Part shown: one piece after another, positions 40,539 through 60,279 of the stretch | How positions within the stretch are numbered: the stretch's first letter is position 1 | Layout of the letters: each line of letters begins with the position of its first letter | NCBI GenBank assembly: GCA_963777125.1 | Contig: CAVZPN010000024.1 | Coordinates: 6,596 to 70,595, forward strand | DNA length: 64,000 bases | Direction: 5' to 3' | Source: an uncultured archaeon | Lineage (GTDB): Archaea > Nanobdellota > Nanobdellia > Woesearchaeales > UBA9642 | Notes under the pieces: model-generated | Database searches by the model: none | The model's input: only the letters and a program-made list of their open reading frames with translations | Told to the model about the DNA's origin: nothing | Made by a program: the position numbers and the translations under genes

Positions 40539-41300
40539 TTAAAATTCAAACTCTTGTCCAGGTAACACGAAACCTGCAAAGCCATCTGCTTTAGGATTTT
40601 TTGTCTCCCAATTTCCACTAAGATGTACTAAATAAGTTTTAGCTCTGTGTTCATCAGACATTTCTCTAAGTAATTTATCATAAGATATATGTACATCTCC
40701 TGGACCAGAATAAAAACATTGACAATCTTGAAATAATATTTTTTTATTTTCAGGAGGTAATTCAATAGTATCGCCAGAATAATAAATCCCATTTGCAAAA
40801 TCTATTGCATAAGACTCCATTCCTTGAACATGCATTGTCGGTACAAATTTAATTTCAGGAATACCTGGAATATTAATTTTAGAACTTACAACCGAATTAA
40901 AATAAGTGTCGAGTGACGCATCTAATGCTAAACCATTAAAATTTTGTATTTTTTGCATCGAACCTTTTAAACAGTTATTCCAAAGCATTTGTTTAAATCC
41001 TTCTGAACCAAGATATAAGTTAGGATTTTGTTCTTCCCTTTTTTTTAATCCAAAATAATTCATAAAACCCAATCCTTCAAGTCCGCCAACATGATCGCTA
41101 TGAGAATGAGTTATTAAAATATCAGTTATACTAGCTAATTCTCCTCGTTTAAGTAATTCAGACGTTACAGTATAACCACAATCTACAAGAAGATTTCTAT
41201 TTTGATCTCCTTTAACAAGAAAACTAGTATTTCCTAGTTTAAAATTGAGTCCCGACCCTGTACCTAACCAAATTAGTTTCATAATACTATCACTACTCAA
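40539..41300 (-). CDS. MBL-fold metallo-hydrolase
   Basis: ITHSHSDHVGG (HxHxDH) zinc-binding motif and a downstream conserved His. Confidence 0.7.
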   Translation of the reverse strand: MSSDSIMKLIWLGTGSGLNFKLGNTSFLVKGDQNRNLLVDCGYTVTSELLKRGELASITDILITHSHSDHVGGLEGLGFMNYFGLKKREEQNPNLYLGSEGFKQMLWNNCLKGSMQKIQNFNGLALDASLDTYFNSVVSSKINIPGIPEIKFVPTMHVQGMESYAIDFANGIYYSGDTIELPPENKKILFQDCQCFYSGPGDVHISYDKLLREMSDEHRAKTYLVHLSGNWETKNPKADGFAGFVLPGQEFEF

Positions 41301-43496: not shown

Positions 43497-44544
43497 TCAA
43501 TTAGTATAATCCTTCCATCTAAATATTGCTGCAATTCCGGTTAGACCATCTAATTTTTTCATTGCATCATCGCTACTTATTAATTTAACTTCAGCATTCA
43601 TAGCTTCAACAAGAGTCATAATATTCTCTACTACATCATACTTATGCTCCTTTTTCATTTTTTTTATATAATTATCAGAAATTAATAATTTTGCAACATT
43701 TCCAGCATTTACTTTTTCAAGAACTTCATCAGTTCCGTATACTGCTTCATCCTTAGTAATTTTTCCAAGTAATTCCTCAACTAATTTTACTTCACGTGTT
43801 GCTCTATCTTTATCGAGTACTGTTTTTAATTCAGAATCTTTTTAATATCTCATTAATTGCGCCATCATCAACACTTGAACAAGTTGCCAGCACAATTTTT
43901 TTAAGTATAGTATCATCTTTAACTTCTTTGATTAAATATTCTTTCCAAAATGCAGGACTTGCAAGAATTATATTATCAAATAAATATTTATGATTATAAG
44001 CCAATATATGAGAATAGATTTCTTGATAAAAGTTTGTTTTCTTCTCCTCCATATCCTTCTTTGAAACATCTCCTTTTAAATCAAGTAAAACTTCATATCC
44101 TTGATTTTTGAGTACTGCAAATATTGCTTCCTCACAATCAAACGCAACTATTAAAATATTTACTATTTGAGCATTAATTGCTTCATCAAGCTTTTTTAAA
44201 GCATATTTTGACCAAACAGCCTTAGTAAGAGTCACAACTACGCCTGACGTTAAATCGAAAGTATGATAATCCCCTTTCGGAATATCGTCTGGTGCTTCAA
44301 TTATTTTACCAGATAATCTTAATGAATCTTCATGTTCTAACTTTTCAACTTGTATTTTTAAGAAAACTATACGTTTAATAATTTTAGATTTATCTTCAGA
44401 ACCGCCTAATTTTAATTTTCTTTCAGTTGTACCACTAATAAAATCTCCTTCTTCAATAATACCTGCAAGATGCCATAAATCCGTAGTATCATCTACTTTA
44501 AGCTTTATTTCTCCATGTTTTAAGTCCTTATCTAATATTTTCAT
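43497..44544 (-). CDS. pelA: Pelota (Dom34) mRNA surveillance factor, reading frame interrupted by a +1 frameshift at an A5 run
   Basis: 43831..44544 encodes the Pelota N-terminal and central domains (MKILDKDLKHGEIKLKVDDTTDLWHLAGII...). Manual minus-strand translation of 43497..43830 in the adjacent frame gives the eRF1-like domain 3 (ATREVKLVEELLGKITKDEAVYGTDEVLEKVNAGNVAKLLISDNY...AIFRWKDYTN*). Deleting one T from the T5 run at 43839..43843 joins them into one approximately 345 aa protein. Confidence 0.7.
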
Positions 44545-44719: not shown

Positions 44720-45679
44720 TTACTTCTCACTTGCACGTAAATCTTCAATTTTATTTGCAAGTATAATTCTTTCAAAAACAATAAAATAAGTGAACTGAAC
44801 AACAAGTGCTACTATTAAAGGTATTGCAGTATGTGCTGTAAAAAGCAACAAAACTATTGCAAGACCCGTCATTTCATTTTTTTGAGTAGAATATAATGAA
44901 TAATCAATTGCATCCATTTCTGATACAAACTGACGACTAACATAATATACTATTAAACCTAAAGTAAATATTACGGTAATATTTATCAAAAAGATATGTC
45001 TTATATTAATATCGCTGATATTTAGCAGTATTGATCTATTTAAGGATACAACAATAAAAATAATTAACCCTAATAATAAATTAGTAATTATTTTAGTATA
45101 ATTAAATAGGTAATTGATTACTTTAGTCTCAATATTTCTTGTTAAATAGGCTAAAATTATTGGAATTAAAATCAATATTAAAAGTGAACGTGCGAGTAAC
45201 ATAAATTTTATATTAGTACCAAAAAGAGCATATAATGTTGTTGGAATAATTATCAATGCAAGAAAATAACTTAAAATTAAAGCACTATCAGCAACTTTTA
45301 TATCACACTTTGCTAAATAACATAATGGAACTATAGCAATAGCAGGAGGAATTATTGCAAGTAAAACATAACCTAAAAAGTAATCTGAAGATAGTGGGAA
45401 AAATATTGAAGCAATAAGCAAATAAAATCCCGACAATAAAACATAATTTAATAGAATTGAAATAATAATACTTTTTCTGTCTGAAGAAATATTATTAAAA
45501 TTAGACTTTTTTTTAAAAAAAGGTCTTATTGATAAAAACATCACAACTCCAAGACTAATTTCAGTAATAGATTTAATAGAATTAACATTTATGATAAAAA
45601 TTAAAGGTAAAATTATAGCCATAATAAAAATAAGTTCAGTACTTTCAAACAAAGATTTAATGGAAAAATTAAAGACCAT
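44720..45679 (-). CDS. polytopic membrane protein (approximately 10 TM), possible transporter
   Basis: Highly hydrophobic 319 aa ORF. Divergently transcribed from the Cys-rich pilin-like gene. Confidence 0.45.
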   Translation of the reverse strand: MVFNFSIKSLFESTELIFIMAIILPLIFIINVNSIKSITEISLGVVMFLSIRPFFKKKSNFNNISSDRKSIIISILLNYVLLSGFYLLIASIFFPLSSDYFLGYVLLAIIPPAIAIVPLCYLAKCDIKVADSALILSYFLALIIIPTTLYALFGTNIKFMLLARSLLILILIPIILAYLTRNIETKVINYLFNYTKIITNLLLGLIIFIVVSLNRSILLNISDINIRHIFLINITVIFTLGLIVYYVSRQFVSEMDAIDYSLYSTQKNEMTGLAIVLLLFTAHTAIPLIVALVVQFTYFIVFERIILANKIEDLRASEK

Positions 45680-45892: not shown

Positions 45893-47578
45893 GTGAACAG
45901 CATGACTCAAAGAAGAGGACAAAGTGCAGGTAATGCAGCAGCATTTGTAGCAATATTAACCGTATTAATAATTGTATACATATTATTCTTACCTCCAGAT
46001 ATAAGAACTGAATTATTAGGAGATAAAAATGGAATATTAAATGATTCTAGTACTAGCACAAATACTGAAATACTATTAAAACAAAATATTGGCAAAGTCA
46101 CCTACATCAATACTGCTGAAAAAACATACGATTTACCAACTGTTCGAATATATTCTCCAACAAGCGGTCAAGTTCTAAAAAGTATTCCGAGTTCTAATAT
46201 AAGATACGCACTTTTTGATACTGAAAAATCTAAATATACTCTTGAATTAAATATTGATAAAAGATCCACAGAAAATCTTGTTTTAGTATTTAATGTCATG
46301 GAACATACAGGACCATTAATTATTGCTCTTAATGGTAATGAAATATTTAATGGCGAAGTAAAAACAACTAATCCTAAACCAATAAAACTTGATTCTGGAT
46401 CATTACTTGAAAACAATATTATAACATTTAGTGTCCCATCCCCTGGTTTAAAATTTTGGACTGCTAATAAATACACTTTAGAAAATATACAAATTACTGG
46501 CGATGTAACTGACTATAGTAATTCTATGGCCATACAAAATTTCGTTATAAGTCAAGTCGAGAAAGAAAATCTTGAAAGTATAAAATTATTTTTTTATCCT
46601 GATTGTGATTTATCTGAAGCTGGAAGCTTAAGAATTGATTTAAACGGAAGAGCAATATATAATAGTGTAGCAGATTGTGGAACAAGAACATTTGCAACAT
46701 TAAATACCAACGATATAATTTCAGGCAGTAATGAATTAAGATTTTATAGTGCTAAAGGATCATACATGTTAGATAATATGTATATCAAAACTACAATGAC
46801 AAAACCAGCATATAAAACATACTTCTTTGACTTAAAAGATGAATATTTTACATTTAAAACAAAAACTAGTATGTGTGGAGAATATGATGGCACATGTCCT
46901 ATTGGTTGTGATGAAACAACTGATGCTGATTGCTGCTTTGATAGAAAAGGATATTGGTGCGCTCTACCATTATCAAACGTTAATGATAGATGTAGATTCT
47001 ATGTAGCAAGCGATGATTGTTCATTATGTAAAACAGGATATTATGATGACAGCGGAGATGCTCCGACTACTTGTGAAAAAAAATGCGGAGATAACAACGA
47101 TAAAATCTGTGATAGTACTTGCTCGCAACCAAATAAATATTACGATAAAGATTGCTGCTTTGCACAAAGCAAGGATAATTTCTGGTGTAAAGAAACACCA
47201 ATAACAGGAATTGCAGACAAATGTAAACCAGCAATAAATCCTAGTGAATGTGACTTATGTCCATCAGGATACATCAATAAAGATGGCTCAGAACCTAAAT
47301 CATGTACTACTACAAACTTTAATATTCAAGATGAAGATTACTTATTTTCAAGCAATTATGAATTGAAAATCGTAGTTAAATTTGTTGATAGTACAACACG
47401 TAAACGTGTAGACTTTAATATCAATGGTCATACATTTAGAATTGATACAACAAATGTTGAATATACTAAATTAATCGCAGACTACGCTACAACTGGAACT
47501 AACAGCATTGAAATAAAACCAGTAGATAAAGATGTGGATATTTCAGAAGTTAGAGTAGAATTAAGAAGAGTTAAGTAA
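45893..47578 (+). CDS. pilin-like surface protein with class III (type IV prepilin-like) signal peptide and large Cys-rich ectodomain
   Basis: Likely true start is the ATG at 45902 (MTQRRGQ|SAGNAAAFVAILTVLIIVYILFL). This gives a short basic leader, a G at the cleavage position and a hydrophobic stretch. Internal duplicated Cys motifs (CSLCKTGYYDDSGDAPTTC / CDLCPSGYINKDGSEPKSC and DADCCFDRKGYWC / DKDCCFAQSKDNFWC). SD aggtga upstream. Confidence 0.55.
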   Translation: MNSMTQRRGQSAGNAAAFVAILTVLIIVYILFLPPDIRTELLGDKNGILNDSSTSTNTEILLKQNIGKVTYINTAEKTYDLPTVRIYSPTSGQVLKSIPSSNIRYALFDTEKSKYTLELNIDKRSTENLVLVFNVMEHTGPLIIALNGNEIFNGEVKTTNPKPIKLDSGSLLENNIITFSVPSPGLKFWTANKYTLENIQITGDVTDYSNSMAIQNFVISQVEKENLESIKLFFYPDCDLSEAGSLRIDLNGRAIYNSVADCGTRTFATLNTNDIISGSNELRFYSAKGSYMLDNMYIKTTMTKPAYKTYFFDLKDEYFTFKTKTSMCGEYDGTCPIGCDETTDADCCFDRKGYWCALPLSNVNDRCRFYVASDDCSLCKTGYYDDSGDAPTTCEKKCGDNNDKICDSTCSQPNKYYDKDCCFAQSKDNFWCKETPITGIADKCKPAINPSECDLCPSGYINKDGSEPKSCTTTNFNIQDEDYLFSSNYELKIVVKFVDSTTRKRVDFNINGHTFRIDTTNVEYTKLIADYATTGTNSIEIKPVDKDVDISEVRVELRRVK

Positions 47579-47625
47579 AATTCTCTAGTAATGAGGTGTA
47601 AGCCTAAGGTGAGGCTAAAGTAAAT

Positions 47626-49182
47626 ATGGGAACAGATAAAGCCGATAAAGATACTGAGAATTCTAAAGAAACTAATAAAGTAGCTAACGCTGGTAAAAAA
47701 ACTGCTGATGCAATAAACGCAGCTGGCGACGCTACATTAAGAAGTTTACGTAATGCTGGAAAAGCAATTGGAGGAAGTGGCGATTCATCATCTAGTTCTA
47801 AATCAAGTAGCGGATCTAATGGTGCAATCGCAATATTATTTGTAATTTCATTATTTCTTCACATTCTTGATTCTATTACTAAATTTGATAGACCAGGATT
47901 TATGTTATTTTATTATATTGGTCTAATAATATTTGCTTTTTTCTTTATTTTTAATATGAAACTTAACCAAGAGGGTGAAAAACAATTATTAGTAGTTATT
48001 TTCATATCTTATTTATTGCCTTTTGCAATAAAATATTTACCAGATAACAGATGGATACTTGCAATTTCAGGAATACTATTTTTAATTCCACTATTACCAC
48101 TATATATTGGACTACAGGCACCTCAAGATTCATTTTTATATAAATTTACAAAATGGTATATTGTCTTTTGGATAATCATACTAGCATTTTATCTTGTAGC
48201 AACATTTGCACCGACACAAGTAAGTACAGCACAACTTAAAGGAAATGTATGGACAGGAGCATCATATGTTTTGGGAAATACTGGAAAAACAATAAGTACT
48301 GTTACAACATCAGCAAATAATGCTCTAGCACGTGCTATTGCGCAAGCAACTGGAGAACCATATGATGGTCAAGAAGAAAGCAGAGTTGGAATTTATGTTG
48401 AAAATGTTAAAGCACTAGAATCAGGATATAATACTAACTCGGATGTTTTTGTTGAAGCTAAAATTAAAGCAATAAATCTAAAAGAACCAGTTAGAGTTAC
48501 AACAATATGTTATATTCCTGCAGTTCGTCAAGGAATTACAAATCCAGCTATCTTACCTGAAGTTAGTGCAGATTATGAAAATATTATTGATTGTGAACTA
48601 GGAAAATTAACTGCAGGAAATCATGAAGTAAAAGTACGTGCAATATTCGAGTTTAAAAGTACATCAGATATTGAATACACTTTTGTTAGCACTAATATTA
48701 AAACTGATCAATATACTAAATTAAATATTGATCCTACAACAATTGCAACATATACAGGTGGACCAGTAGCTGTTGGTTTACCATCCATAAAACAACCATT
48801 ACGAATAGAATTAGATCCTGATAAAACTGATGCAATGACTTATCCATTTGGAGTTAGCTTACAAAATAAATGGCCGCAAGGAAAAATTATGAAAGGATTA
48901 CAGTATAAATTAAATACTCCAAAAGAAGTAAAATTAGTTGAATGTAGTAGAACACCTACTGAAGTAAAAGAACCTGATGTTGATGGAAGAAACATATACA
49001 TATTTAATATTGATACTACCAATGCTCAAGATGTATTTGATGCAGTTAGATGTAGAATGCAAATAAGTGACGCGAAAGGATTATTAGGTAATGATCTAAA
49101 AAGCGTAAAAACATTTGCTGCAGAAGCAACATACGAGTACTCAGTTGAAAGCTCTGCAAGTATTAATATTATTAAAAGTTAG
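47626..49182 (+). CDS. polytopic membrane protein whose extracellular C-terminal domain belongs to the locus-specific paralog family
   Basis: Ser-rich N-terminus and approximately 6 TM helices. Ectodomain has the family N-terminal block (VGIYVEN...NTNSDVFVEAKIKAINLKEPV) and a GGPVAVGLPSIKQP block. Confidence 0.5.
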   Translation: MGTDKADKDTENSKETNKVANAGKKTADAINAAGDATLRSLRNAGKAIGGSGDSSSSSKSSSGSNGAIAILFVISLFLHILDSITKFDRPGFMLFYYIGLIIFAFFFIFNMKLNQEGEKQLLVVIFISYLLPFAIKYLPDNRWILAISGILFLIPLLPLYIGLQAPQDSFLYKFTKWYIVFWIIILAFYLVATFAPTQVSTAQLKGNVWTGASYVLGNTGKTISTVTTSANNALARAIAQATGEPYDGQEESRVGIYVENVKALESGYNTNSDVFVEAKIKAINLKEPVRVTTICYIPAVRQGITNPAILPEVSADYENIIDCELGKLTAGNHEVKVRAIFEFKSTSDIEYTFVSTNIKTDQYTKLNIDPTTIATYTGGPVAVGLPSIKQPLRIELDPDKTDAMTYPFGVSLQNKWPQGKIMKGLQYKLNTPKEVKLVECSRTPTEVKEPDVDGRNIYIFNIDTTNAQDVFDAVRCRMQISDAKGLLGNDLKSVKTFAAEATYEYSVESSASINIIKS

Positions 49183-49195
49183 AATAATTTAACCA

Positions 49196-50671
49196 TTGAA
49201 AGGAACAGTTATGAAAATAAGTATTAAAAAAAATAATAGCGTATTAATGAGTATATTTATATTGCTTACAGTAATATTTTTAACAGGATGTCAGGGTAGT
49301 GGTACTACGGAAAAATATCGTATTGGAACTGAAGGATTAAACTTAGAATTTGCATCATCTAATGTTAAAAGTGTATACGAAAACGAAAACTTCGGAACAT
49401 CAATAATTATCAAAAATATTGGTAGTTATGATATTTTAGATCAGAGTAATCCCGCAATATTAAAAGTTAGTTTTGATGATTATAGATTAAAATTTACTAA
49501 TTCTAAAGAAAATGTTAAAGAACAACAAATGTTAATTAATGGTAAAAGCAAATATTATCCTAAAGGAGATGAAATAAACTCAGAATACTATTTTGAATCA
49601 TTAAAACTCACTGATTTGAGAGAAAAATCAACTACTGAAATTAATTATAACTTATGTTATCCATATAATACTGAAATAACCACAGTTACATGTATTGATA
49701 CAAAACTTGCTAATAAAGATCAAACTGCAGCAGCATGTGCAAGTGAAACATATAGCGGATCTCAAGGTCAAGGAGCACCAATTGTTATAACTAAAATCGT
49801 ACCAGAAATCATGTTGCAAACAGAATATGTACGTCCACAATTTAAAATATATATTGAAAATAAGGGACCTGGATATGTTAATAACGCAAATAGTTGCAAT
49901 GTTGCAGATATTAATGATAGATCATCTTCAGGAAGAGTTAACGTATACGCTACTCTTTCAGGAACTCCTTTAGAATGTGGTCCTGATAATTCAGCATCAC
50001 TAAAATTAGTTGATTCTGAATCATTTATTAGATGCTATCTTCCAAATAAAGAAAAAGGATATTCACGATTAGAAAAAAATTATTTAACTCCATTAACAGT
50101 TAGTATTGATTATACCTATACTGTAATTACTAAACAAGAAATAGAAATTAAAAGAGATGACACAATAGAACGTGTTGTAACAAAAGACTGTGATTCATAT
50201 CAAATATTAAATGAAAATAAAACATGTGTTGATAAATGCTTATATTGTACCACTCATCCAAATGAAGATGTATGTAAAGTAAATTTACCTTTTGCAGAAT
50301 TTGAATTTAAAGAAGGTTTTTCATGTAGTTGTACTCTTGATCAATGTAATAGCAGAAATAAAACAGGAAATTGTATTAAAGGATATTGCCCTGGTAGTTT
50401 GTATTGCTGTAATACTCCTGTTGTTTGTGATAAATATCAAATAGAATTTAAGGGAAAATGTATCAATAAATGCGATTACTGCAGAGATAACTGGACTACA
50501 AACCCTAATGATCCTATTTGTCTCTCTAAATATGATTTTACTAACGCAAAATGTGATTCAATTACTGCGACAACATGTGATTCATTAGCAAAAAATAATT
50601 CCTGCATAAAAGGATTTTGTGGAGGAACAGATTCAAATAAATATTGTGTAAATACCTTTCCACAAGTATAG
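49196..50671 (+). CDS. lipobox-containing (LTGC) surface protein, paralog family member with Cys-rich C-terminal repeats
   Basis: Signal peptide ending LTGCQGSG. Family N-terminal block (GTEGLNLEFASSNVKSVYENENFGTSIIIKNIG). GSQGQGAPIVITKI. Repeated CIKG(Y/F)C(P/G)G Cys motifs. Confidence 0.55.
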   Translation: MKGTVMKISIKKNNSVLMSIFILLTVIFLTGCQGSGTTEKYRIGTEGLNLEFASSNVKSVYENENFGTSIIIKNIGSYDILDQSNPAILKVSFDDYRLKFTNSKENVKEQQMLINGKSKYYPKGDEINSEYYFESLKLTDLREKSTTEINYNLCYPYNTEITTVTCIDTKLANKDQTAAACASETYSGSQGQGAPIVITKIVPEIMLQTEYVRPQFKIYIENKGPGYVNNANSCNVADINDRSSSGRVNVYATLSGTPLECGPDNSASLKLVDSESFIRCYLPNKEKGYSRLEKNYLTPLTVSIDYTYTVITKQEIEIKRDDTIERVVTKDCDSYQILNENKTCVDKCLYCTTHPNEDVCKVNLPFAEFEFKEGFSCSCTLDQCNSRNKTGNCIKGYCPGSLYCCNTPVVCDKYQIEFKGKCINKCDYCRDNWTTNPNDPICLSKYDFTNAKCDSITATTCDSLAKNNSCIKGFCGGTDSNKYCVNTFPQV

Positions 50672-50744
50672 ATTAAAAAAGCAGAATATATTATACTTAA
50701 AAAAAACATAATCTTTATATATTATACACACAGGAGTTAATAAA

Positions 50745-52046
50745 ATGGTATTCAAACTAAACAATAAAATATTCTTAATAAGCACCTTAGTAATTGTTTT
50801 AATTTTAATTACTGGATGCGGAAGCACTACAAGTAATGTTCAAAAAAAATATTACACAGGATATAACAGTTTAGAAATGAATTTTTTAAGCGATAGTCCA
50901 CCATCAATATTTTATTATGACAGTGAAGCTCATGATAGAGGGGACTATGCTGCAAATACTATACCAATACTTGTTCAAATACAAAATAAAGGTTCATCTG
51001 ACAGTTATGGTGCATTATTTATACATGGATTTGATCCAAATATAGTTGCTATTCAAGGATATACTTCAGGATTTCCAGGATATAATGGTCCAATTAGAGG
51101 AGCTAGTTCTTTTGGCGGATGGTACGGTAACAATAATAATTATGCAATTAACGCATTAAATGTTCCTATAGGTACAAATAGCTATAGTTTAAATCTTCAA
51201 AAAGTCAATGGCCAAACAGGAATATCTTTTTCATCATTTGGATCTCGTTCACAATTATTCGGATCACTCGGATTCTCTAAGACATCACAAGTAGGAACTG
51301 GCTATACTGGAATAAATGTTGGTGTAGTACAAAATCGTGTTGGCTCAGTATTAAATCCTATAACTCGAGGAATGTTTAATCAATATGGTTGGAATGGTTG
51401 GTTAAAAGAACTTGAATTAGAGGGTAGAAATTCTGAAAATCCTGCAGGCGGAATGGATGTTATAGAATTCCCTGCAACAATATTAACACTTCCTCCATCA
51501 CTAGAAGAATTTAGACAAAGAGTAATGGTTACATCATGTTTTGATTACGCAACACATTCATCAACAATGGTATGTATTGATCCAGAACCATACTCTAATG
51601 TTAAAAAATCTTGTTTAATAAATACTGTAAGCGGAGGCGCAGGTCAAGGAGCTCCTGTTGCGGTTACAAGTATTGAACAAAGACCTGGCAAGGGCAGAAC
51701 TACATTTATTATAAATATTAGACACAATAAACAAGGAACATACGATGAATTATATGATTACTTTAATTTATACAAATGTGATCCAGCATCTGGCGCAACT
51801 GTAAAAACAAATGATAAAAACATTGTATATGTTGGATATGTGTACTTATCTCAATATGATATAACAATGGATTGTATGCCTGATCAAATGATTAGACTTG
51901 ATGATTCGGGTTCAGGTCAGATAACATGTTCAATAACTTTCCCAGAAGGAATGGCAAGTAGCGCATATCAAGCACCGCTTGAAGTAGAATTATGGTATGG
52001 TTATTCGAAAACAATATACAAAGATATGATTATTAGAAGAATATAA
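50745..52046 (+). CDS. lipobox-containing (ITGC) surface protein, paralog family member
   Basis: Signal peptide ending ITGCGSTT. Family N-terminal block (TGYNSLEMNFLSDSPPS...IPILVQIQNKG) and GGAGQGAPVAVTSIEQ. Confidence 0.55.
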   Translation: MVFKLNNKIFLISTLVIVLILITGCGSTTSNVQKKYYTGYNSLEMNFLSDSPPSIFYYDSEAHDRGDYAANTIPILVQIQNKGSSDSYGALFIHGFDPNIVAIQGYTSGFPGYNGPIRGASSFGGWYGNNNNYAINALNVPIGTNSYSLNLQKVNGQTGISFSSFGSRSQLFGSLGFSKTSQVGTGYTGINVGVVQNRVGSVLNPITRGMFNQYGWNGWLKELELEGRNSENPAGGMDVIEFPATILTLPPSLEEFRQRVMVTSCFDYATHSSTMVCIDPEPYSNVKKSCLINTVSGGAGQGAPVAVTSIEQRPGKGRTTFIINIRHNKQGTYDELYDYFNLYKCDPASGATVKTNDKNIVYVGYVYLSQYDITMDCMPDQMIRLDDSGSGQITCSITFPEGMASSAYQAPLEVELWYGYSKTIYKDMIIRRI

Positions 52047-52104
52047 ATTAGTATAATAATAGTATAAACAAATATAATAATTAAATAAACCTAAAGGTGA
52101 TAAA

Positions 52105-53088
52105 ATGAATAAAGGCATAGTATTGGTAATGATTTTGGCTATAAGTTTGTTTTTAACTGGTTGCGGTAATACGGGCACAACAACCGGTAAAACATTTATT
52201 GGTGGAACAGAAGGATTAAAAACAAGTTTTCTTTCAGGAAATCCTCCAGCTGTAACAACAGACGGCGGAACTACACCATTTAGTATCGGCATAAAAATGG
52301 AAAATATGGGAGAAAGTAGTATTAAATCTAGCGACGGATATGTAGAAATTTGGGGAGCAGATGCTTCAACATATAGTTCTAAATATCCTGACTTTAAAAA
52401 AACATTTTCACAAGAAGCAACTTTTGGAGAAGAATTAAGTGGTGCTAAAATGAATTATGGTAACCAACTACACGGCGGAACCAGCACTCTTACATTTGAT
52501 GACTTAAAATATGTTCCTATAATCACTGGTGATAATCGTGAACAATTAATTAGAGCAAATGTTTGTTACAAATACTCAACACAAGCAACAGCACAAATTT
52601 GTGTAAAAAATAATATAGAACAAGCACTTAGTGGAAAAGAAATATGTACTGTTGAAGAAGAGAAAAATCCTCAAAATAGCGGCGCACCAATACATATTAC
52701 ATCATTAAAAGAATTCTATGGGGGTAATGGAAAAATAGGAATAACATTAACAATTGCTCATGTAGGAAATGGAGATGCATTTTTCAAAGATGATCAAATA
52801 AAATGCGTTGATAGCTTAAGCAACGGCGATAAAGGAAAAGTCAGAATAAAATTCAAAGACATACAATTAGGTGGAAAGAGTATTCCTGTAGTATGCCCTG
52901 GCGTTAGCGAAGATGGATATGTTAGATTGTATAGCGAAGGTGCAGGAAAAGAATCAACTAATGTTCAATGTACAATCGATGTTTCTGGCAATAAAAATGT
53001 TGTAGAGGTACCAATAGAAGCAGAATTAAGCTACGTATACTTACAACACATAGAAACTGGCTTAACAATACGACATGTAGTTCAATAA
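52105..53088 (+). CDS. lipobox-containing (LTGC) surface protein, paralog family member
   Basis: Signal peptide ending LTGCGNTG. Family N-terminal block (GGTEGLKTSFLSGNPPAV...FSIGIKMENMG) and NSGAPIHITSLKE. Confidence 0.55.
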   Translation: MNKGIVLVMILAISLFLTGCGNTGTTTGKTFIGGTEGLKTSFLSGNPPAVTTDGGTTPFSIGIKMENMGESSIKSSDGYVEIWGADASTYSSKYPDFKKTFSQEATFGEELSGAKMNYGNQLHGGTSTLTFDDLKYVPIITGDNREQLIRANVCYKYSTQATAQICVKNNIEQALSGKEICTVEEEKNPQNSGAPIHITSLKEFYGGNGKIGITLTIAHVGNGDAFFKDDQIKCVDSLSNGDKGKVRIKFKDIQLGGKSIPVVCPGVSEDGYVRLYSEGAGKESTNVQCTIDVSGNKNVVEVPIEAELSYVYLQHIETGLTIRHVVQ

Positions 53089-53354: not shown

Positions 53355-54575
53355 TTAACTTGTTACAAACATTCCGCCCATAAGTGTTGCAAACATCATA
53401 GAAGCCACATAATAAATTATTAATGATATAATTATAAATATTGGAATAAGCTTAGTACCATCTTTAACACTGCCTTTTCTAATAACACTAATTATAGCTG
53501 CAGAAAAGAACGAAGATATAATTAATACTAACATCGAAAATCTTCTAAAATCGTTAACATTAATGCTGTCATTAGAAAAATTAAAACTAAAAGAACCCAT
53601 ACCAGAGCTGTCTAATTGCAAACTACCAAAAATTTGCTGTATGATAATTAATAATTGAGTACTTAATGCAAATAATAATGGTGCCGCAAGTACTGAAGCT
53701 ACACCAATAAATATTGCATAAGTTGTAACACTAGCACCGATTTCTTTACGCATTAATTGCGTTTCTTTAATATTACTAGATAATTTATTCAATAATACTG
53801 CCATTTCTCCGCCGCTTCTAATACCCTCTACGATTAAATTTATTGTCTCTCGCAACATTCTTGATTCATACTTAGTTCCAAGACGCAATAATGCCGTTTC
53901 TAAATCATCTCCAACAATCGTAGATTTAGCAACATTTTCCATTTCTACAGCAAGTATTCCAAATTTTGATCGTATAGCATACCATAATGCTCTATCAACA
54001 GTCATTCCTGCACTAATATTAGCAGAAGCTAATTGTAAAAAATCAGGTAATGATTCTTCAATTTGACGTACACGATTATACATTTGTACATCCAAATATA
54101 AAAATATTGCAAGTATTGATAAAAAATATATTGCTAAAAATACTAATATCCAAATTACTAGTAAAAACAAGAATAATACATCAAGAGATTTATGATTAAC
54201 AATTACAAAAGATAAGATAATAAAAGATAATATTGCAGATATTATTGCGACAATTGTTAATATCTTTTTATTAATGTCTCTCGGACTAATCTCAAGACCC
54301 ATCCTAGTAACAAAATCTGCAAATAATCCTATTAACTTTTTTTTAGGCTTTGAAACTCTATCAAATTTACTGCTATTTTTTTGTAAGGCAACTCTCTTTA
54401 AATCTTTTTCAAAAGTGGCTTGATCAAAGTGTGCTTTTAATAAATTATTAAACTTGTCTCTAAAATTATTTAATGAGTTGAATTCTTTAAACTGTACAGA
54501 ACTATCTTGACTAGATATTAACTCTTCTTTAAAGTTTTTCAAACTTCTCTTTTTGTGTTCTATTGTATCGCTCAT
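53355..54575 (-). CDS. type II secretion system F-domain membrane protein (TadC/FlaJ-like)
   Basis: T2SSF-like segment (LPDFLQLASANISAGMTVDRALWYAIRSKFGILAVEMENVAKS...LETAL) flanked by TM helices. Confidence 0.65.
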   Translation of the reverse strand: MSDTIEHKKRSLKNFKEELISSQDSSVQFKEFNSLNNFRDKFNNLLKAHFDQATFEKDLKRVALQKNSSKFDRVSKPKKKLIGLFADFVTRMGLEISPRDINKKILTIVAIISAILSFIILSFVIVNHKSLDVLFLFLLVIWILVFLAIYFLSILAIFLYLDVQMYNRVRQIEESLPDFLQLASANISAGMTVDRALWYAIRSKFGILAVEMENVAKSTIVGDDLETALLRLGTKYESRMLRETINLIVEGIRSGGEMAVLLNKLSSNIKETQLMRKEIGASVTTYAIFIGVASVLAAPLLFALSTQLLIIIQQIFGSLQLDSSGMGSFSFNFSNDSINVNDFRRFSMLVLIISSFFSAAIISVIRKGSVKDGTKLIPIFIIISLIIYYVASMMFATLMGGMFVTS

Positions 54576-54633
54576 TTTTCTATTATTAATATTATTTATA
54601 CAATCATAATATAACTACATTATAAACATCATT

Positions 54634-55425
54634 TTATGTACTTATGGATGGTCTTGATGACTTTGCAACTGATAAAAACATAAATTGTACAAATCCAATC
54701 ATCACTGCAAGTACAACGAGTATAGTCATACTAATCTTTAAACCCATAAATGAAGCAGCAATTACTAGCATAGTTATTCCGAGTGATGGTACAATTATGG
54801 AAATAGTCATATAAAACATTGCTAAAGGACTAAGTTTTTTACCATATTCTGAAACAGCAATAGCTTGTTCTCGAACAATTTGTTCAGCCACTGAATTTAA
54901 TGCTCCTGCAACTTCAGTTCCTGTTTGCAAAGAATTCATTACTTGCCATAATAATCTTCGTAAATTTGGTGAAGGCGAAGTATTTAATGTATCACTTATG
55001 GCATCTTCCATTGTGGTCCCAAAATAAACTTTATTCAATATTTCACCAAAATAATATCCTATATATTCATAATTTTTTTCCATATCCTCAAATATTTTAT
55101 GTATTGGAACACCAGATTCTATTCCAATAATTAAAAATCGTGCAGCAAAAATTATTTCTTCATCTATTTTCTTTTTTATCTTTTCTATTTTTACATCTAC
55201 ATATTTTATAAAATACATAAATAAAAAAGGAAGACTAAATGGAATAATTAATATTGCCAAAAATGACGAAGTAAAAAAAAAGAACATAAAAAATAAACCT
55301 ATAGAAATCATCACTATTGTTGCAACTGTAGATTTAATATACTCTTCAGGCTCAGCAAGTATACCTGCTTGTCTAAGTTTTAGTCTTAACTCAGGCATAC
55401 GTTTGGAAAGGTAGGAATATAGCAT
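54634..55425 (-). CDS. type II secretion system F-domain membrane protein (TadB/FlaJ N-half-like)
   Basis: T2SSF-like segment (GVPIHKIFEDMEKNYEYIGYYFGEILNKVYFGTTMEDAISDTL) plus 3 TM helices. A 58 nt gap with stops in all frames separates it from the next gene. Confidence 0.6.
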   Translation of the reverse strand: MLYSYLSKRMPELRLKLRQAGILAEPEEYIKSTVATIVMISIGLFFMFFFFTSSFLAILIIPFSLPFLFMYFIKYVDVKIEKIKKKIDEEIIFAARFLIIGIESGVPIHKIFEDMEKNYEYIGYYFGEILNKVYFGTTMEDAISDTLNTSPSPNLRRLLWQVMNSLQTGTEVAGALNSVAEQIVREQAIAVSEYGKKLSPLAMFYMTISIIVPSLGITMLVIAASFMGLKISMTILVVLAVMIGFVQFMFLSVAKSSRPSIST

Positions 55426-55541
55426 AATATCACATTTTTGTTAAAACAATAACAACCCATAATAATATATTAAGGTTAAGTACAATATACTCACACATTA
55501 CAATTAATAGAGTATAATCTTATTATAATTAAAAGTAATAC

Positions 55542-57839
55542 TTATTTAGTTTTTTTACTTAGTTTATTCGATTTAGATGAGTCTAATTTTGCTTTAGTTT
55601 TAGAAGACCCTTTTGATTTGTTTTCAGTTGATTTTGTATTGGGCTTTTTAGAGGAACTAGATTTATTCAAATTATCATCTGGAGTAGTAGAATTAACAGC
55701 AGCATTAACTGCGCTTTTTGAATCGGAAGCATTAACAGCAGCAGCACTTGAATCTACAGTTGGAATTTTTAATGCAGAATTAGATTCTGGAACTACAGGT
55801 AATTCTATTTTTAGTTGTGATGCTAGAGGGAAATCTTTATTTGAATTAACATATTTCATAAGATTTGGCTTTGCAGTATAATATTCTGCAACAATTCTTC
55901 CTACACCATCAACATCATCAATATTTTTCGAAACTAAATATTTTAACACCTTCACCTTATCATCTAATTCTTTATTTATTTCAGCCGTAGTCATACCAGT
56001 AAACAATGCAATATTATCAAATAATGATTTAGATTTACTTATTTGCACAAGAACATCTTTATTAATATCATACTGCATTATTACATTAGCTTCACCAGTA
56101 GATAATATTTCAGCAATTTGGAACGTTCTTCTTTTACCGCTTCTTCTATTTCTAAATTGTACTATTATTAAGGATATTGCTGGCAACATAATTTTTGGAA
56201 CGTCAAGCGGAGCATTTGTCAATCTCTCAACTGTCTCTTTAGCGCTATTTGCGTGAAATGTTGCATATACTGAGTGTCCAGTGTGTATTGCTTCGAATAA
56301 TGTTTCTGTTTCTCTCTTTCTTCTAACTTCTCCTACAAGAATTCTATCTGGTCTCATTCTTAAACTATTAACGAGTAAATCTCCCATATTTATTTCTCCT
56401 TTTCCTTCAGCATTTGGAAGAGTAGTATTTAATGGAACCCAATGTAAAAACTTTGGAAGAACAATTTCTCTTGTATCTTCAATACTTAAAATTCTTTGAT
56501 TTGGCGGGAAAAAATTAGCGAAAACATTTAATGCTGAAGTCTTACCTGAAGCTGTTCCTCCTGCAATTAAAGCAGATAATTCAAATTGTATTGCTGTCCA
56601 TATTAATGCTGCAGCTTCAGCTGAAATTGTTGCTGTTCTAATAAATTTAGTTATAGTCCATGGATCCTTAGAAAACTTTCTAATAGTCATAGTATTACCA
56701 TTTGTTGAAACAGGACTTAAAGTAGCATTTACTCTATCTCCAGTTCCTAAATTTGCATCTAAAAGAGGAGTTAGAACAGTAATTTGTCTTCCGACTCTTC
56801 TTCCAATAATACTTGCATAATGTCTTATTTGCTCTTCACTTTTCAGATATACATTTGTTCTAAGCCAATTGTATTTTTTATGATATACCCATGCTGGCTC
56901 AGATGATTGATTTATTACTACTTCTTCAAGTAATTCATCATTCATTAATAATTCTAAATTACCAAGACCTAAACTATGCATTTTCAAATAAGATCTTAAA
57001 AATCCTACTGTATCAATATCGCTGTCAGGAAAATATTTACCGATAAGTATATCTATTAATTGATTAAATTTATCTTCCACCATATCTGTTTTTTTAACAT
57101 TACCTATTTCTTCTGCACCCAAACTTACCCTTCTTATCAATTCTAAACGTACTTTTTCAAGAATCATTTCGGTAGTTTTACTTATTGCGGAAATTTGTAA
57201 ATTATATATAGGAACAAATTCACCAATCTTTTTAACAACAGTCACAGTTATGGGAATACCTTCTGATTTAAATTCATAAGTATCGAGTAATTTATCCTCA
57301 TTACTCTCAATATCTTCAGAATCATTAGAAACTTTAGATAACTTTTTTGTATCTACTAAAATATTTTTAGCGGATTTAGCAGACTTATTACTTTTAGAAA
57401 GTTTAACTAAATTATCAACAGAATTAGTACTCTCACCAGCAGACTTAGTTGCAGTTAAATCTATAGACTTATCTATAATTTTGGCAGATTTATTTACAGC
57501 AGAATCTTTTGATAGATCCTCTTTTTGTATATCCTTAATTATGGATGATTCTTCTAACTCTTTTTTATATTTTTTAGAATTTTCTAAAGTCTTATCAAAA
57601 AGAGAATGAATTGCGTTAGAAACAACATTAACGGGATTTTTATCATTAGAAATAATTTCTGTTTTAGAAGAATTTACAGATTTAACATCATCAGCAGGCA
57701 TATTAAGAACATCTTTTTTAGAAGTAAGAGCAGTAACTGGCTCTTCTTTAGTATTCTTCTCTTTAGTAGCATGCTCTTTAACATGCGCTTTACTAGTTGA
57801 TGATTTTTTACTCATTATTTTCAATAGTCTGTTTCCCAC
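55542..57839 (-). CDS. FlaI/TadA/VirB11-family secretion ATPase with long K/S-rich N- and C-terminal low-complexity extensions
   Basis: Walker A GGTASGKTS, RPDRILVGEVR (Asp box region), ATFHANS His box. Approximately 200 aa N-terminal and 110 aa C-terminal K/S/N-rich tails. Confidence 0.85.
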   Translation of the reverse strand: MGNRLLKIMSKKSSTSKAHVKEHATKEKNTKEEPVTALTSKKDVLNMPADDVKSVNSSKTEIISNDKNPVNVVSNAIHSLFDKTLENSKKYKKELEESSIIKDIQKEDLSKDSAVNKSAKIIDKSIDLTATKSAGESTNSVDNLVKLSKSNKSAKSAKNILVDTKKLSKVSNDSEDIESNEDKLLDTYEFKSEGIPITVTVVKKIGEFVPIYNLQISAISKTTEMILEKVRLELIRRVSLGAEEIGNVKKTDMVEDKFNQLIDILIGKYFPDSDIDTVGFLRSYLKMHSLGLGNLELLMNDELLEEVVINQSSEPAWVYHKKYNWLRTNVYLKSEEQIRHYASIIGRRVGRQITVLTPLLDANLGTGDRVNATLSPVSTNGNTMTIRKFSKDPWTITKFIRTATISAEAAALIWTAIQFELSALIAGGTASGKTSALNVFANFFPPNQRILSIEDTREIVLPKFLHWVPLNTTLPNAEGKGEINMGDLLVNSLRMRPDRILVGEVRRKRETETLFEAIHTGHSVYATFHANSAKETVERLTNAPLDVPKIMLPAISLIIVQFRNRRSGKRRTFQIAEILSTGEANVIMQYDINKDVLVQISKSKSLFDNIALFTGMTTAEINKELDDKVKVLKYLVSKNIDDVDGVGRIVAEYYTAKPNLMKYVNSNKDFPLASQLKIELPVVPESNSALKIPTVDSSAAAVNASDSKSAVNAAVNSTTPDDNLNKSSSSKKPNTKSTENKSKGSSKTKAKLDSSKSNKLSKKTK

Positions 57840-57931
57840 TTATATCCCCACACCACTCTTAACAGTCTAAATTCTAACAGGTCAATATCCTCTCAATCAT
57901 CTCAATGTAGCAATAATACCGCATAAACATA

Positions 57932-57990
57932 CAATATATACTTAATATATATTTAATATATACTTAATATATACTTAAATAAATATTACA
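57932..57990. repeat. approximately 11-nt tandem repeat (ATATACTTAAT)x3-4 upstream of the FlaI-like ATPase operon
   Basis: caatatatacttaatatatatttaatatatacttaatatatacttaaataaat. Confidence 0.4.
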
Positions 57991-59151
57991 TTACTTAGTT
58001 TTTTTAAACATTGAAATTAATTGTGATATCTTTCCTTTAATAGACATCTTTTTATTCTCAAATTCTTTAATTTTTGATTCAATATCTTTTAATTCTGATT
58101 TAATATGCACACTTGAAGTTAATAGAGTAAATGAAATAACTTTTGCCTTTAAAGCTTCGAGTTCTTTTGCTAAAGATAACTTATCACTTTCAATTTCTGT
58201 AATTAATTTTTCAATAGTAATGTTTTTGGAAAAAAAGCCTTCAAAACCCTTATGTACTTTATCACTTAATGCTGAATGTGCATTAATACTTTCTTTTTGC
58301 GAACTTAATTCTTTCTCTATTTGTGCTTGAGTTTTAAAAATCTTATCTTCGTTTGATTTTAAAGCAAGTATTTTTTTTGTTAATAAACTACTTTTTTTAT
58401 CTGAAATTTCCTGATCTAAATTATCTAAAGAAAGTTTATATTTGAGAATAGTTTTATTAGCATCATCAAATTTATTTTTATAATCTAAGATAACTTTATC
58501 GATATTTTTCAAAGATTCTTTCAAAGAAGTAACTGTTCGTTCATAATCATTACGTAATTTTACTAATTCTTCAATTTTTTTACCATATTGATCAACATTA
58601 GTTCTTTCTTTTGCAATTACATTATGTAATTCATCATATTTTTGTGATTCTAATTTTAATTTGTCTTGCGCTTCTTTAACAAAAGAATCATAATCAATTC
58701 TCTGTTTATCAATATCTTTGCCTAAATTCTTTCTTAAAGAATCATATCTATCGAGTTCAGTTAATTGAGTTTTTACTAAATTAATTTCCTCTTTAATATT
58801 GCTTTGAATTTTTGCAAATTCCGCTCTAATAGTCTCAAAATCGCTAGTTTCTTCTTGTAATGCGCTTAATGCAACATCGATTTTTCTTGCTAAAGCATCT
58901 TTTTCTGATGTTACTTCTTTAATATTTGTTAATACGTCTTCTTTGCCTATTTTTCGTTCAGAAATAAATATTTTAGAAAGATGATACTCAAGACTTACAA
59001 GTCCTTCCTCTTCTAGAAATTCAGCCCATTCTTGCACAACATTCTTACCTACACCTAAAGTTTTTGCAGCTGAATCTAGATCTAAGCGCTTTTTTTCGGA
59101 TACAAGTTCAACTAACTTATCCACACCAGTTGTAATGCTTCTTCTCACCAT
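57991..59151 (-). CDS. coiled-coil protein with N-terminal winged-helix-like domain (pilus-locus associated)
   Basis: N-terminal LDLDSAAKTLGVGKNVVQEWAEFLEEEGLVSLEY is HTH-like. Followed by approximately 300 aa of heptad-rich sequence. Confidence 0.45.
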   Translation of the reverse strand: MVRRSITTGVDKLVELVSEKKRLDLDSAAKTLGVGKNVVQEWAEFLEEEGLVSLEYHLSKIFISERKIGKEDVLTNIKEVTSEKDALARKIDVALSALQEETSDFETIRAEFAKIQSNIKEEINLVKTQLTELDRYDSLRKNLGKDIDKQRIDYDSFVKEAQDKLKLESQKYDELHNVIAKERTNVDQYGKKIEELVKLRNDYERTVTSLKESLKNIDKVILDYKNKFDDANKTILKYKLSLDNLDQEISDKKSSLLTKKILALKSNEDKIFKTQAQIEKELSSQKESINAHSALSDKVHKGFEGFFSKNITIEKLITEIESDKLSLAKELEALKAKVISFTLLTSSVHIKSELKDIESKIKEFENKKMSIKGKISQLISMFKKTK

Positions 59152-59250
59152 CTTTATAAACTAAATTCACCTTTACTTATATAATTTTGTTACAACTATT
59201 AAATTAACAAGCACAATGATGCTTAAATTAATACTTCAATCTACCTTAAG

Positions 59251-60279
59251 TTAAGGACATGCTGTTTCATTTATATTATCTAAACCATAAAATGTTTTTC
59301 TATCTCTTGGCAATATTAAAGGATACAAAGGATTATGAGTTAAATTAATACATACTTTATTAACATTTAAATCGTTAAAATAAATATAATCTACCTTTAT
59401 TCGTTTAGGATATGATGTTAATTCGGGATTCAATAAAATCCTATCATCTACAATACTTTCTATACCGTAAGGATCTGAAGTAGTTTTTCCTTCAAAACGC
59501 ATAATAAAAGTAGGAGCATTACTAGATTCAATATAATACGAACTATTAATATGATTTTGTAAAGTCATAAGACTAATATCATTAAACAAAATACTAGAAT
59601 TAATAGTAGAATTTAATCTTCGGATAGTATTTGGAACTTTATTAAATGTATTTTTACTATATAAGGGATCTCTTAAATTATCAATAGGAACGGTTGTTAC
59701 GTATTCTTTATTAATATTCCATGATGCAGTATGTTTATTATCTATAAGAGTTATATTCAAAGCCATATATACATCAATATTCCATGGATCAGATTGCACT
59801 AAATTAATATTTGAAACATTAATGTTTAAATCCATACCAGTATTACTAGATATAGCATCTACTTTAGAAACATAATCATAAAAAGTCGAATTAGCCATTA
59901 TGGGCGAGTTAGTTCCATTTATTGTACCATAATAAAACGTTTCTCTAAAAGACTCATTAATATTTGTTAAATAAACCCCGCTCGTAGTTACATAATCCTC
60001 GAGAGCCAATAAAGTCCTAAACGCAGAGATATATGTTGCACGGTGAATATCATTATTTAAATTTTTAGTAAAATCATTCATTGATCTGATCCTTATTTGT
60101 TGTAATAATTCTTGATCTTGATATCTGTAATTACTAGCAGCAAAAAATATACTAAGTAAAATAGCAACCATAAGCGTTGTAACTAAAACATAAGTAAATC
60201 CTTTACGACTTTTTCTAGAAGTAATGATTAAATTAGATAGTATATTCTTTAAATTCTTAAGTAGCATAATCATTGCCAT
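59251..60279 (-). CDS. pilin-like protein with class III signal peptide
   Basis: N-terminus ...SRKSRKG|FTYVLVTTLMVAILLSIFFAA, a basic leader with G-F then a hydrophobic helix, like prepilins. Start overlaps the end of the giant upstream gene by 10 nt. Confidence 0.5.
   Translation of the reverse strand: MAMIMLLKNLKNILSNLIITSRKSRKGFTYVLVTTLMVAILLSIFFAASNYRYQDQELLQQIRIRSMNDFTKNLNNDIHRATYISAFRTLLALEDYVTTSGVYLTNINESFRETFYYGTINGTNSPIMANSTFYDYVSKVDAISSNTGMDLNINVSNINLVQSDPWNIDVYMALNITLIDNKHTASWNINKEYVTTVPIDNLRDPLYSKNTFNKVPNTIRRLNSTINSSILFNDISLMTLQNHINSSYYIESSNAPTFIMRFEGKTTSDPYGIESIVDDRILLNPELTSYPKRIKVDYIYFNDLNVNKVCINLTHNPLYPLILPRDRKTFYGLDNINETACP

Follow-up and report, generated by a model that had tools for sequence, protein, structure and literature searches.

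A conserved five-gene operon with three tandem lipobox protein paralogs in Woesearchaeota-type archaea

Woesearchaeota and their relatives belong to the most widespread uncultured archaea and supposedly rely on partner cells, and their attachment and envelope machinery has so far been undefined. This report deals with a cluster of five genes, A to E, on a 64,000-nucleotide stretch of contig CAVZPN010000024.1 from an uncultured archaeon of the Woesearchaeales (assembly GCA_963777125.1); the whole stretch is referred to as the window. Several described systems offer points of comparison. Type V pili of Bacteroidota (FimA-E, Mfa1-5) consist of a fixed set of subunits with distinct roles (stalk, anchor, tip), which polymerise by strand exchange once the lipidated N-terminus has been removed proteolytically. 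Class III pilin-like proteins, i.e. substrates of EppA/PibD, carry a short charged leader, [KR][GA] followed by glutamine, and a hydrophobic helix of ~20 residues; glutamine at the +1 position is reportedly typical of EppA-type substrates. Among archaeal lipoproteins, the substrate-binding proteins of ABC transporters are the commonest class. A survey of 524 genomes found predicted lipoproteins to be prevalent in DPANN archaea and Euryarchaeota, with the lipidation enzyme AliA being present in DPANN "with some gaps" (PMC12462473). According to two studies, Woesearchaeota and Pacearchaeota possess extracellular murein-degrading proteins and are possible episymbionts or predators of bacteria (PMC8204110, PMC9723730); the former of these reports extracellular murein transglycosylases, a possible episymbiosis with bacteria, and 51 lineage-specific families of unknown function (Castelle et al. 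2021, PMC8204110). Peptidoglycan hydrolases are also prominent in Nanoarchaeota (PMC12352652).

The window is archaeal, with a G+C content of ~28%, and its genes include those of pelota, a Hef-type helicase, PheRS and TrmB-type regulators as well as a type IV filament (TFF) locus. Genes A to E span positions 45893-53088 of the plus strand and are arranged head-to-tail with intergenic gaps of 13-73 nt; an oligo-T-rich tract is located 3' of the stop codon of gene E.

45893-47578, plus strand: gene A, 561 aa, first gene of the operon, prepilin-like
47626-49182, plus strand: gene B, 518 aa, membrane protein
49196-50671, plus strand: gene C, 491 aa, lipoprotein paralog
50745-52046, plus strand: gene D, 433 aa, lipoprotein paralog
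52105-53088, plus strand: gene E, 327 aa, lipoprotein paralog

A preliminary description of this DNA had treated B to E as four tandem paralogs of a surface-protein family. Its positions for these four open reading frames (ORFs) match ours exactly; it omitted A, the upstream member of the conserved operon. It is highly probable that surface lipoprotein paralogs are encoded here in a conserved operon. The wider reading, namely that A to E are one conserved operon specifying a β-sandwich-rich extracellular set of proteins, which is tethered to the membrane in three ways and forms a complex possibly serving contact with a partner cell, is given a probability of about 0.55.

To define the conservation of the cluster, 58 genomic loci containing relatives of E were fetched, and their ORFs were classed by iterated searches with hidden Markov models (HMMs); complete sets were counted in those 37 loci in which the sequence upstream of E extends over 7.5 kb or more. 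In 35 of these 37 Woesearchaeota/Nanoarchaeota-type loci, the order pelota (minus strand) followed by A-B-C-D-E (plus strand) is complete, and A is located 5' of B in every such locus. Pelota is adjacent in 34 of the 35 complete loci and hence a conserved neighbour. Where a taxon label is attached to one of the 115 homologs of E, it mostly reads Woesearchaeota, Nanoarchaeota or Nanoarchaeia. Comparison of the window with locus L008 revealed sequence identities of 52% (A), 37% (B), 34% (C), 42% (D) and 47% (E), as compared to 62% for pelota; judged from these values, the operon proteins appear to evolve faster than a translation factor, yet are far from hypervariable. Four hypothetical proteins can thereby be assigned to a well-delimited five-gene operon, which is open to testing and occurs almost throughout the lineage as sampled.

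Some peculiarities of individual loci may be mentioned. A second E-like gene follows E in a few loci (variant loci L016, L018 and L028). In the window and in locus L009 only, an SBF-family (sodium/bile acid symporter-like) gene, located at 44720-45679 on the minus strand of the window, lies between pelota and A; elsewhere, pelota and A lie side by side in divergent orientation. Many public records of metagenome-assembled genomes that contain the operon together with pelota are labelled Alphaproteobacteria, Allocoleopsis, Bacteroidota or "uncultured Methanosarcinales" (L002, L004, L006, L010, L012 and others; proteins P0007, P0017 and P0084). For contigs of the Woesearchaeota type, such names look like mistakes of binning or taxonomy.

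Judged by sequence comparison, C, D and E are unquestionably paralogous. BLASTP among the five operon proteins gave E-values of 1e-7, 6e-6 and 1e-8 for the C/D/E pairs, and the check by profile comparison that had been recommended for the family was positive for these three, since hhalign of family versus family resulted in E-values of 1.7e-50 (C-D), 6e-28 (C-E) and 8e-32 (D-E) at probabilities of 99.8-100% over ~270 columns. A common core of ~317 positions was found in all 157 members examined. Both sequence blocks that had been reported to be shared by the family are present in C, D and E. Block 1 reads GTEGLNLEF in C, GYNSLEMNF in D and GTEGLKTSF in E, followed by I.I.N.G-type strands; block 2 is located in the middle of the proteins.

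49766-49798, plus strand: block 2 motif of C, GQGAPIVITKI
51642-51674, plus strand: block 2 motif of D, GQGAPVAVTSI
52675-52707, plus strand: block 2 motif of E, NSGAPIHITSL

In an alignment of 145 C/D/E sequences (numbering of E), the lipobox cysteine, N67, G69, Y157, C166, C181 and P195 are invariant, and the positions conserved in at least 90% of the sequences include G34, G37, C154, Y155, T159, G193, C234, C264, C289, Y310 and Y312. The six conserved cysteines of E outside the lipobox (154, 166, 181, 234, 264 and 289) suggest that three extracellular disulfides may be formed.

Because the order C-D-E is fixed in 35 of the 37 well-flanked distant loci, the triplication is ancient, with C, D and E representing three ancient orthologous groups. 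The earlier idea of repeated duplication yielding diversifying surface components is at odds with the one-to-one orthology of C, D and E in distant genomes and with their ordinary degree of conservation. What does hold is that the members diverge outside the shared regions, by lineage-specific insertions and tails. E is the minimal and best-conserved member. In C, the conserved two-domain core comprises aa 1-323, and the tail (aa 324-491, nt 50165-50668) is made up of a Cys-rich unit of ~80 aa that occurs twice, with the motifs CIKGYCPG and CIKGFCGG (z = 16 versus shuffles), in agreement with the CIKG(Y/F)C.G repeats noticed before in one member. This tail is lineage-specific; distant C orthologs end at ~320 aa and lack it. 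D contains a G/N/S/Y-rich insertion of ~100 aa in domain 1, as compared to distant orthologs of ~315 aa. Neither the extended C-termini of C orthologs nor long family members from a large sequence library showed an informative domain when searched against Pfam. Comparison of domain 1 with domain 2 of the C/D/E proteins did not support an internal duplication at a significant level, as only the terminal hairpin aligns (E = 0.02).

The N-termini of C, D and E consist of a Lys-containing n-region, a hydrophobic h-region, a lipobox, and a G/S/T-rich linker, and the orthologs show the same layout. All three proteins of the window combine a positively charged n-region with an h-region of 7-22 residues, the signal peptides being MKISIKKNNSVLMSIFILLTVIF-LTGC in C, MVFKLNNKIFLISTLVIVLIL-ITGC in D and MNKGIVLVMILAISLF-LTGC in E.

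49280-49291, plus strand: lipobox LTGC of C, aa 29-32
50808-50819, plus strand: lipobox ITGC of D, aa 22-25
52153-52164, plus strand: lipobox LTGC of E, aa 17-20

Of 154 C/D/E orthologs, 151 possess a lipobox, and the N-termini of the other three are truncated. Among the 151 motifs, position -3 is occupied by L/I/A/V/F in 142 and position -1 by G/S/A in 150, while position -2 is mostly S/T/A (also V/I); the cysteine is invariant in alignments of 145 and of 110 sequences as well as in a third alignment. When all six-frame ORFs of 80 aa or more in the 64-kb window were passed through a lipobox filter, C, D and E were the only proteins retained. The motifs, which the preliminary description had called textbook lipoboxes, are canonical and under selection. 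They share their signal grammar, [L/V/I][A/S/T/V/I][G/A/S]C with an invariant cysteine, with the archaeal lipoproteins of the AliA/AliB pathway of Haloferax volcanii (PMC12462473, PMC13631571). Since C, D and E lack a twin-arginine motif, their export is apparently of the Sec type, which matches reports on lipobox lipoproteins of non-halophilic archaea. The proteins would be exported by Sec, then lipidated on the cysteine, presumably by an AliA-type enzyme, and subsequently freed of their signal peptide. The assertion that lipoboxes are unusual outside haloarchaea does not agree with the prevalence of predicted lipoproteins in DPANN archaea observed in the 524-genome survey. C, D and E are clean non-halophilic Sec-type candidates for testing the recently discovered AliA/AliB pathway outside haloarchaea.

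The AlphaFold2 model of E (predicted local distance difference test, pLDDT, 92.8; predicted template modelling score 0.86) comprises two β-sandwich domains (aa 36-170 and 186-325), each of which is closed by a long hairpin, after a signal helix and a flexible linker. The ectodomain model of B likewise contains two β-sandwich domains, so that the β-sandwich fold which was to be checked by structure prediction is supported by both models. In contrast to known archaeal lipobox lipoproteins, the mature parts of C, D and E constitute a new two-β-sandwich family which is not of the substrate-binding type. Searching 1.84 billion representative sequences with a C/D/E profile retrieved 3,370 clusters (50% identity) at E ≤ 1e-3, and 1,234 at E ≤ 1e-30. 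Pfam, NCBIfam and PHROGs searches with A to E returned matches to lipoprotein signal peptides (LptM-type) only, and profiles of the A and C/D/E families did not retrieve any significant match from the PDB, the weak matches being other lipoproteins recognised via their signal peptide. A literature search did not find a description of the operon, the paralogy or the fold. C, D and E thus constitute a new, large, lineage-specific family, encoded in an operon of a known general kind, that of archaeal surface lipoproteins. With three predicted modes of anchoring among its products, a confidently predicted fold for E, and a family of >3,000 clusters for which the databases hold no model, the operon offers several starting points for further work.

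Two other assignments of C, D and E were considered and rejected. They are not regarded as ABC-type substrate-binding lipoproteins, as the model of E is all-β and ABC transporter genes are absent from the operon and its conserved neighbourhood. A viral or mobile origin was dismissed since a scan of viral contigs did not reveal any relative of E; Foldseek comparison with viral structures gave TM-scores of ≤0.22.

With respect to architecture, the nearest analogy to C/D/E is provided by the type V pili, which are likewise encoded as tandem lipoprotein paralogs with a lipobox, a short flexible linker after the cysteine, and two β-sandwich domains of ~150 aa. One might therefore imagine that C, D and E polymerise as a lipoprotein-derived fibre. 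However, type V pilins show no sequence similarity to C/D/E, the distant C/D/E orthologs lack a conserved basic cleavage site after the linker, and the organism is a monoderm archaeon without an outer membrane. As structure comparison did not find the two-domain fold of FimA/Mfa in these proteins either, type V pili are considered an analogy only, and the formation of such a fibre is very improbable.

B starts with a Lys/Ser-rich, disordered cytoplasmic N-terminus, followed by five predicted transmembrane (TM) helices (~aa 64-197, nt 47816-48216) and a long helix. Its ectodomain is modelled by AlphaFold2 as β-sandwiches of aa 255-355 and 373-516 (nt ~48388-49173) with pLDDT values of mostly ~85-94, and contains the following motif.

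48754-48789, plus strand: TGGPVAVGLPSI motif of B

The positively charged N-terminus and the number of TM helices are consistent with a protein that would span the membrane and expose its C-terminal ectodomain to the outside. Distant B orthologs, such as that of L001, have one TM helix, and most of the length variation among B proteins resides in the cytoplasmic and TM part.

The relationship of B to the lipoproteins is remote. BLASTP in the five-protein database did not match B with C, D or E (E > 5), and an initial profile test of a shallow B alignment versus the E family was non-significant, with a probability of 0.5%. Using 44 diverse B orthologs, hhalign aligned residues 378-518 of B with residues 193-321 of C, i.e. 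domain 2, with a probability of 76% and E = 2.3e-5; the register pairs TGGPVAV with GQGAPIV, PFGVSLQNKWPQGK with the F.I.I.N.G strand, and the terminal Y.Y hairpins with each other. When a B-ectodomain HMM was run against 1,917 ORFs (59 loci plus the window), the best 25 non-B matches were all C, D or E proteins (top E = 2e-5), which make up ~8% of these ORFs; the 25 matches are mutually homologous and do not represent independent trials. When the search was reversed, B proteins took the first three places among the matches outside C/D/E. We conclude from these comparisons that domain 2 of C/D/E and the second ectodomain of B are truly, if remotely, related. Block 1 was not demonstrable in B, as a collinear alignment gave P = 0.028 and domain-level tests were weak. 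Of the four tandem paralogs proposed originally, C, D and E stand, whereas B qualifies as a remote relative only, secure via its second ectodomain; B possesses a counterpart of block 2 (TGGPV), and block 1 is not demonstrable in it.

The initial failure of BLASTP and of the shallow profile to connect B with C/D/E would be expected if the resemblance within the operon were an artefact of similar composition among unrelated proteins, with N-termini that are uncleaved TM anchors. Such a reading is contradicted by the C/D/E profile matches with E-values down to 1e-50 and by the exclusive retrieval of C/D/E proteins with the B-ectodomain HMM among its top 25 non-self matches. A plain TM anchor moreover does not explain an invariant +1 cysteine with canonical residues at -1, -2 and -3 in 151 of 154 orthologs. 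For C, D and E, an artefact is effectively refuted, and for the operon as a whole it is hardly credible.

In 11 of 44 B orthologs, the extracellular C-terminus is extended by 90 aa or more. Ten of these extensions were scanned, and five matched peptidoglycan-hydrolase families, of four kinds.

B of L001: Glucosaminidase, E = 5e-16, above the Pfam gathering cut-off
B of L012: SLT (lytic transglycosylase), E = 3e-4, 20.8 bits versus 21.3, below the cut-off
B of L045: Peptidase_M15_4, E = 9e-5, 23.5 bits versus 25, below the cut-off
B of L055: Peptidase_M23, E = 2e-4, below the cut-off
B of L046: Peptidase_M23, E = 0.015, below the cut-off

The recurrence of one class of hydrolases among B tails that otherwise escape annotation seems unlikely to be due to chance. 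Fusions of this kind fit the published inferences on murein degradation by these archaea (PMC8204110, PMC9723730, PMC12352652).

The N-terminus of A, MTQRRG/QSAGNAAAFVAILTVLIIVYILFLPP (the slash indicating the putative cleavage site), is of the prepilin type and class III-like, RRG/QSAGN being followed by the hydrophobic segment AAAFVAILTVLIIVYILFLPP (nt 45911-45997). The true start of A is likely the ATG at 45902. Thirty-nine A orthologs were inspected and conform to a consensus of [KR][KR][GA]Q plus a hydrophobic helix. A hence shares the short charged leader, the [KR][GA] motif preceding glutamine, and the helix of ~20 residues with the class III pilin-like proteins, and like the "bindosome" proteins it has a large globular domain after the helix. 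It differs from structural pilins in that the mature protein is far larger (~400-560 aa, with modules resembling carbohydrate-binding modules (CBMs)) and in that linkage to TFF genes is not conserved. We infer that A may be cleaved after [KR]G by a prepilin peptidase and then either held in the membrane by its hydrophobic helix or placed in a short pseudopilus. Profile comparison did not detect homology of A to B-E.

Beyond its N-terminus, A is β-rich, and a few A orthologs show weak matches to CBM-like/galactose-binding-like jelly-roll domains. An insert at aa ~321-475 (nt 46853-47317) consists of two Cys-rich repeats of ~75 aa with 20 cysteines (z = 14 versus shuffles); it is clade-specific and missing from the distant A orthologs of ~400 aa. 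Because this insert shows no sequence relationship to the Cys-rich tail of C (z = -0.6) and each of the two is absent from distant orthologs, two different Cys-rich modules were gained by the same operon in the same lineage.

The preliminary description regarded the proteins as co-encoded with pilus machinery. A complete-looking TFF locus (53355-63827, minus strand) is indeed located next to the operon, in convergent orientation; it is adjacent in the closest relatives only. It contains two T2SSF-type platform genes, a T2SSE ATPase of 765 aa with long low-complexity regions at both termini, genes for a coiled-coil protein of 386 aa and for a weakly VWA-like protein of 1,185 aa or more, and a pilin-like gene at 59251-60279 on the minus strand, whose product reads SRKG/FTYVLVTTLMVAILL. 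A TFF ATPase gene was found within 10 kb in four of the 35 complete loci. Because of this low frequency of adjacency, the TFF machinery is not a conserved operon partner; that position belongs to pelota.

On the assumption that A to E were diversifying adhesins or accessory proteins of the adjacent type IV pilus, as had been envisaged, one would readily understand why the TFF ATPase and both platform genes lie directly downstream in the window, in four complete loci and in one partial locus of close relatives, why C and D bear lineage-specific tails or insertions, and why A has a prepilin-type N-terminus, so that a prepilin peptidase is probably needed. The assumption leaves unexplained, however, why the TFF locus is convergent and has its own pilin-like gene as well as a large VWA-like protein, why it is missing next to most complete loci, and why C, D and E are one-to-one orthologs in distant genomes instead of recent variable copies. 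We consider this explanation improbable, and A to E do not seem to represent a variable adhesin repertoire.

The reading preferred here is that of a membrane-tethered extracellular protein set. As both the order and the copy number of the three diverged paralogs are fixed, C, D and E would be non-redundant subunits of a single complex. Together with A and B, they might assemble into a hetero-oligomeric envelope complex of fixed stoichiometry at the outer face of the cytoplasmic membrane; that all five products form one complex has about an even chance. More speculatively, the complex could act at the interface with the envelope of a partner cell. The murein-hydrolase fusions of B, the weak CBM-like similarity of A, and the presumed lifestyle as episymbiont or predator are the reasons for considering such a role, which is tentative and on balance doubtful. 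In its most elaborate form, the proposal is that A to E are the core of an undescribed host-contact apparatus, in which C, D and E, as a heterotrimer anchored by lipid, and the membrane-embedded paralog B would present A, as a prepilin-like lectin, and in some lineages murein hydrolases to a bacterial partner's wall, thus coupling attachment to local opening of that wall; we regard this as unlikely. Were the link to murein hydrolases true, it would hint at how such archaea engage bacterial cell walls.

The families of A to E probably are candidate members of the Woese/Pacearchaeota-specific families of Castelle et al. 2021. They resemble those of "module 98" in taxonomic restriction, extracellular location and, via the B fusions, the connection with peptidoglycan degradation; in its available portion, that study lists families by occurrence, without the operon, lipoboxes, paralogy or fold described here (PMC8204110).

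A more conventional alternative is that A to E build or anchor the organism's own surface layer (S-layer) as a housekeeping envelope scaffold, comparable to SlaB or to the lipid-anchored S-layer glycoprotein of haloarchaea, without any specific role in contacting a partner. The operon is single-copy, strictly syntenic and located among housekeeping genes (pelota, PheRS, RFC), its conservation is moderate and not hypervariable, and all five products are β-sandwich-built, as are several archaeal S-layer proteins. On the other hand, five distinct subunits of 35-60 kDa in fixed order are unlike the known one- or two-component S-layers, and fusions of B to murein hydrolases are hard to explain in an archaeon not known to make murein. 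A scaffold of this kind is not likely.

Several observations weigh against the membrane-tethered complex proposed above. Two loci with sufficient flanking sequence (L020 and L030) encode only two lipoprotein paralogs, lack A-C and show a different context, and L022, which has less upstream flank, resembles them; the five-gene set is therefore not obligatory. The paralog pairs of these loci are arranged in tandem in a different neighbourhood (L020, 9908-11890; L022, 5125-7109; L030, 9030-10930). Among the hydrolase fusions, Glucosaminidase alone passes the Pfam gathering threshold, and just 11 of 44 B orthologs have a C-terminal extension at all, B of the window being without one. None of the Pfam pilin/class III signal models matches A, either in the window (E ≤ 1) or among the 39 orthologs (E ≤ 0.01). 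In the 64-kb window, AliA (arCOG02177) or a prepilin peptidase was not recognisable in searches that used neither an AliA reference sequence nor a Pfam model of it.

Some further features of the window deserve mention. Two multi-TM ORFs at 10925-11746 (plus strand, 273 aa) and 17370-18131 (minus strand, 253 aa) did not match Pfam; each is a candidate for AliA or a prepilin peptidase. The pelota gene (43497-44544, minus strand) is frameshifted. The reading frame that opens at 44544 terminates at 43831, giving 237 aa that end in AINEILKRF, and the remaining ~111 aa (ELKTVLDKDRATREV...FRWKDYTN) are read in a different frame between 43832 and 43497, whereas the orthologs are single ORFs of ~350 aa reading ...INEILRRPELKTVLDKD... 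in this region. As the break lies in a T/A homopolymer region, it may reflect either an assembly error or a pseudogene. A metallo-β-lactamase-fold protein encoded at 40539-41300 (minus strand) scored 58.6 bits with the Pfam model of the Anti-Pycsar protein Apyc1 (cut-off 50); it may be an RNase Z-like housekeeping enzyme.

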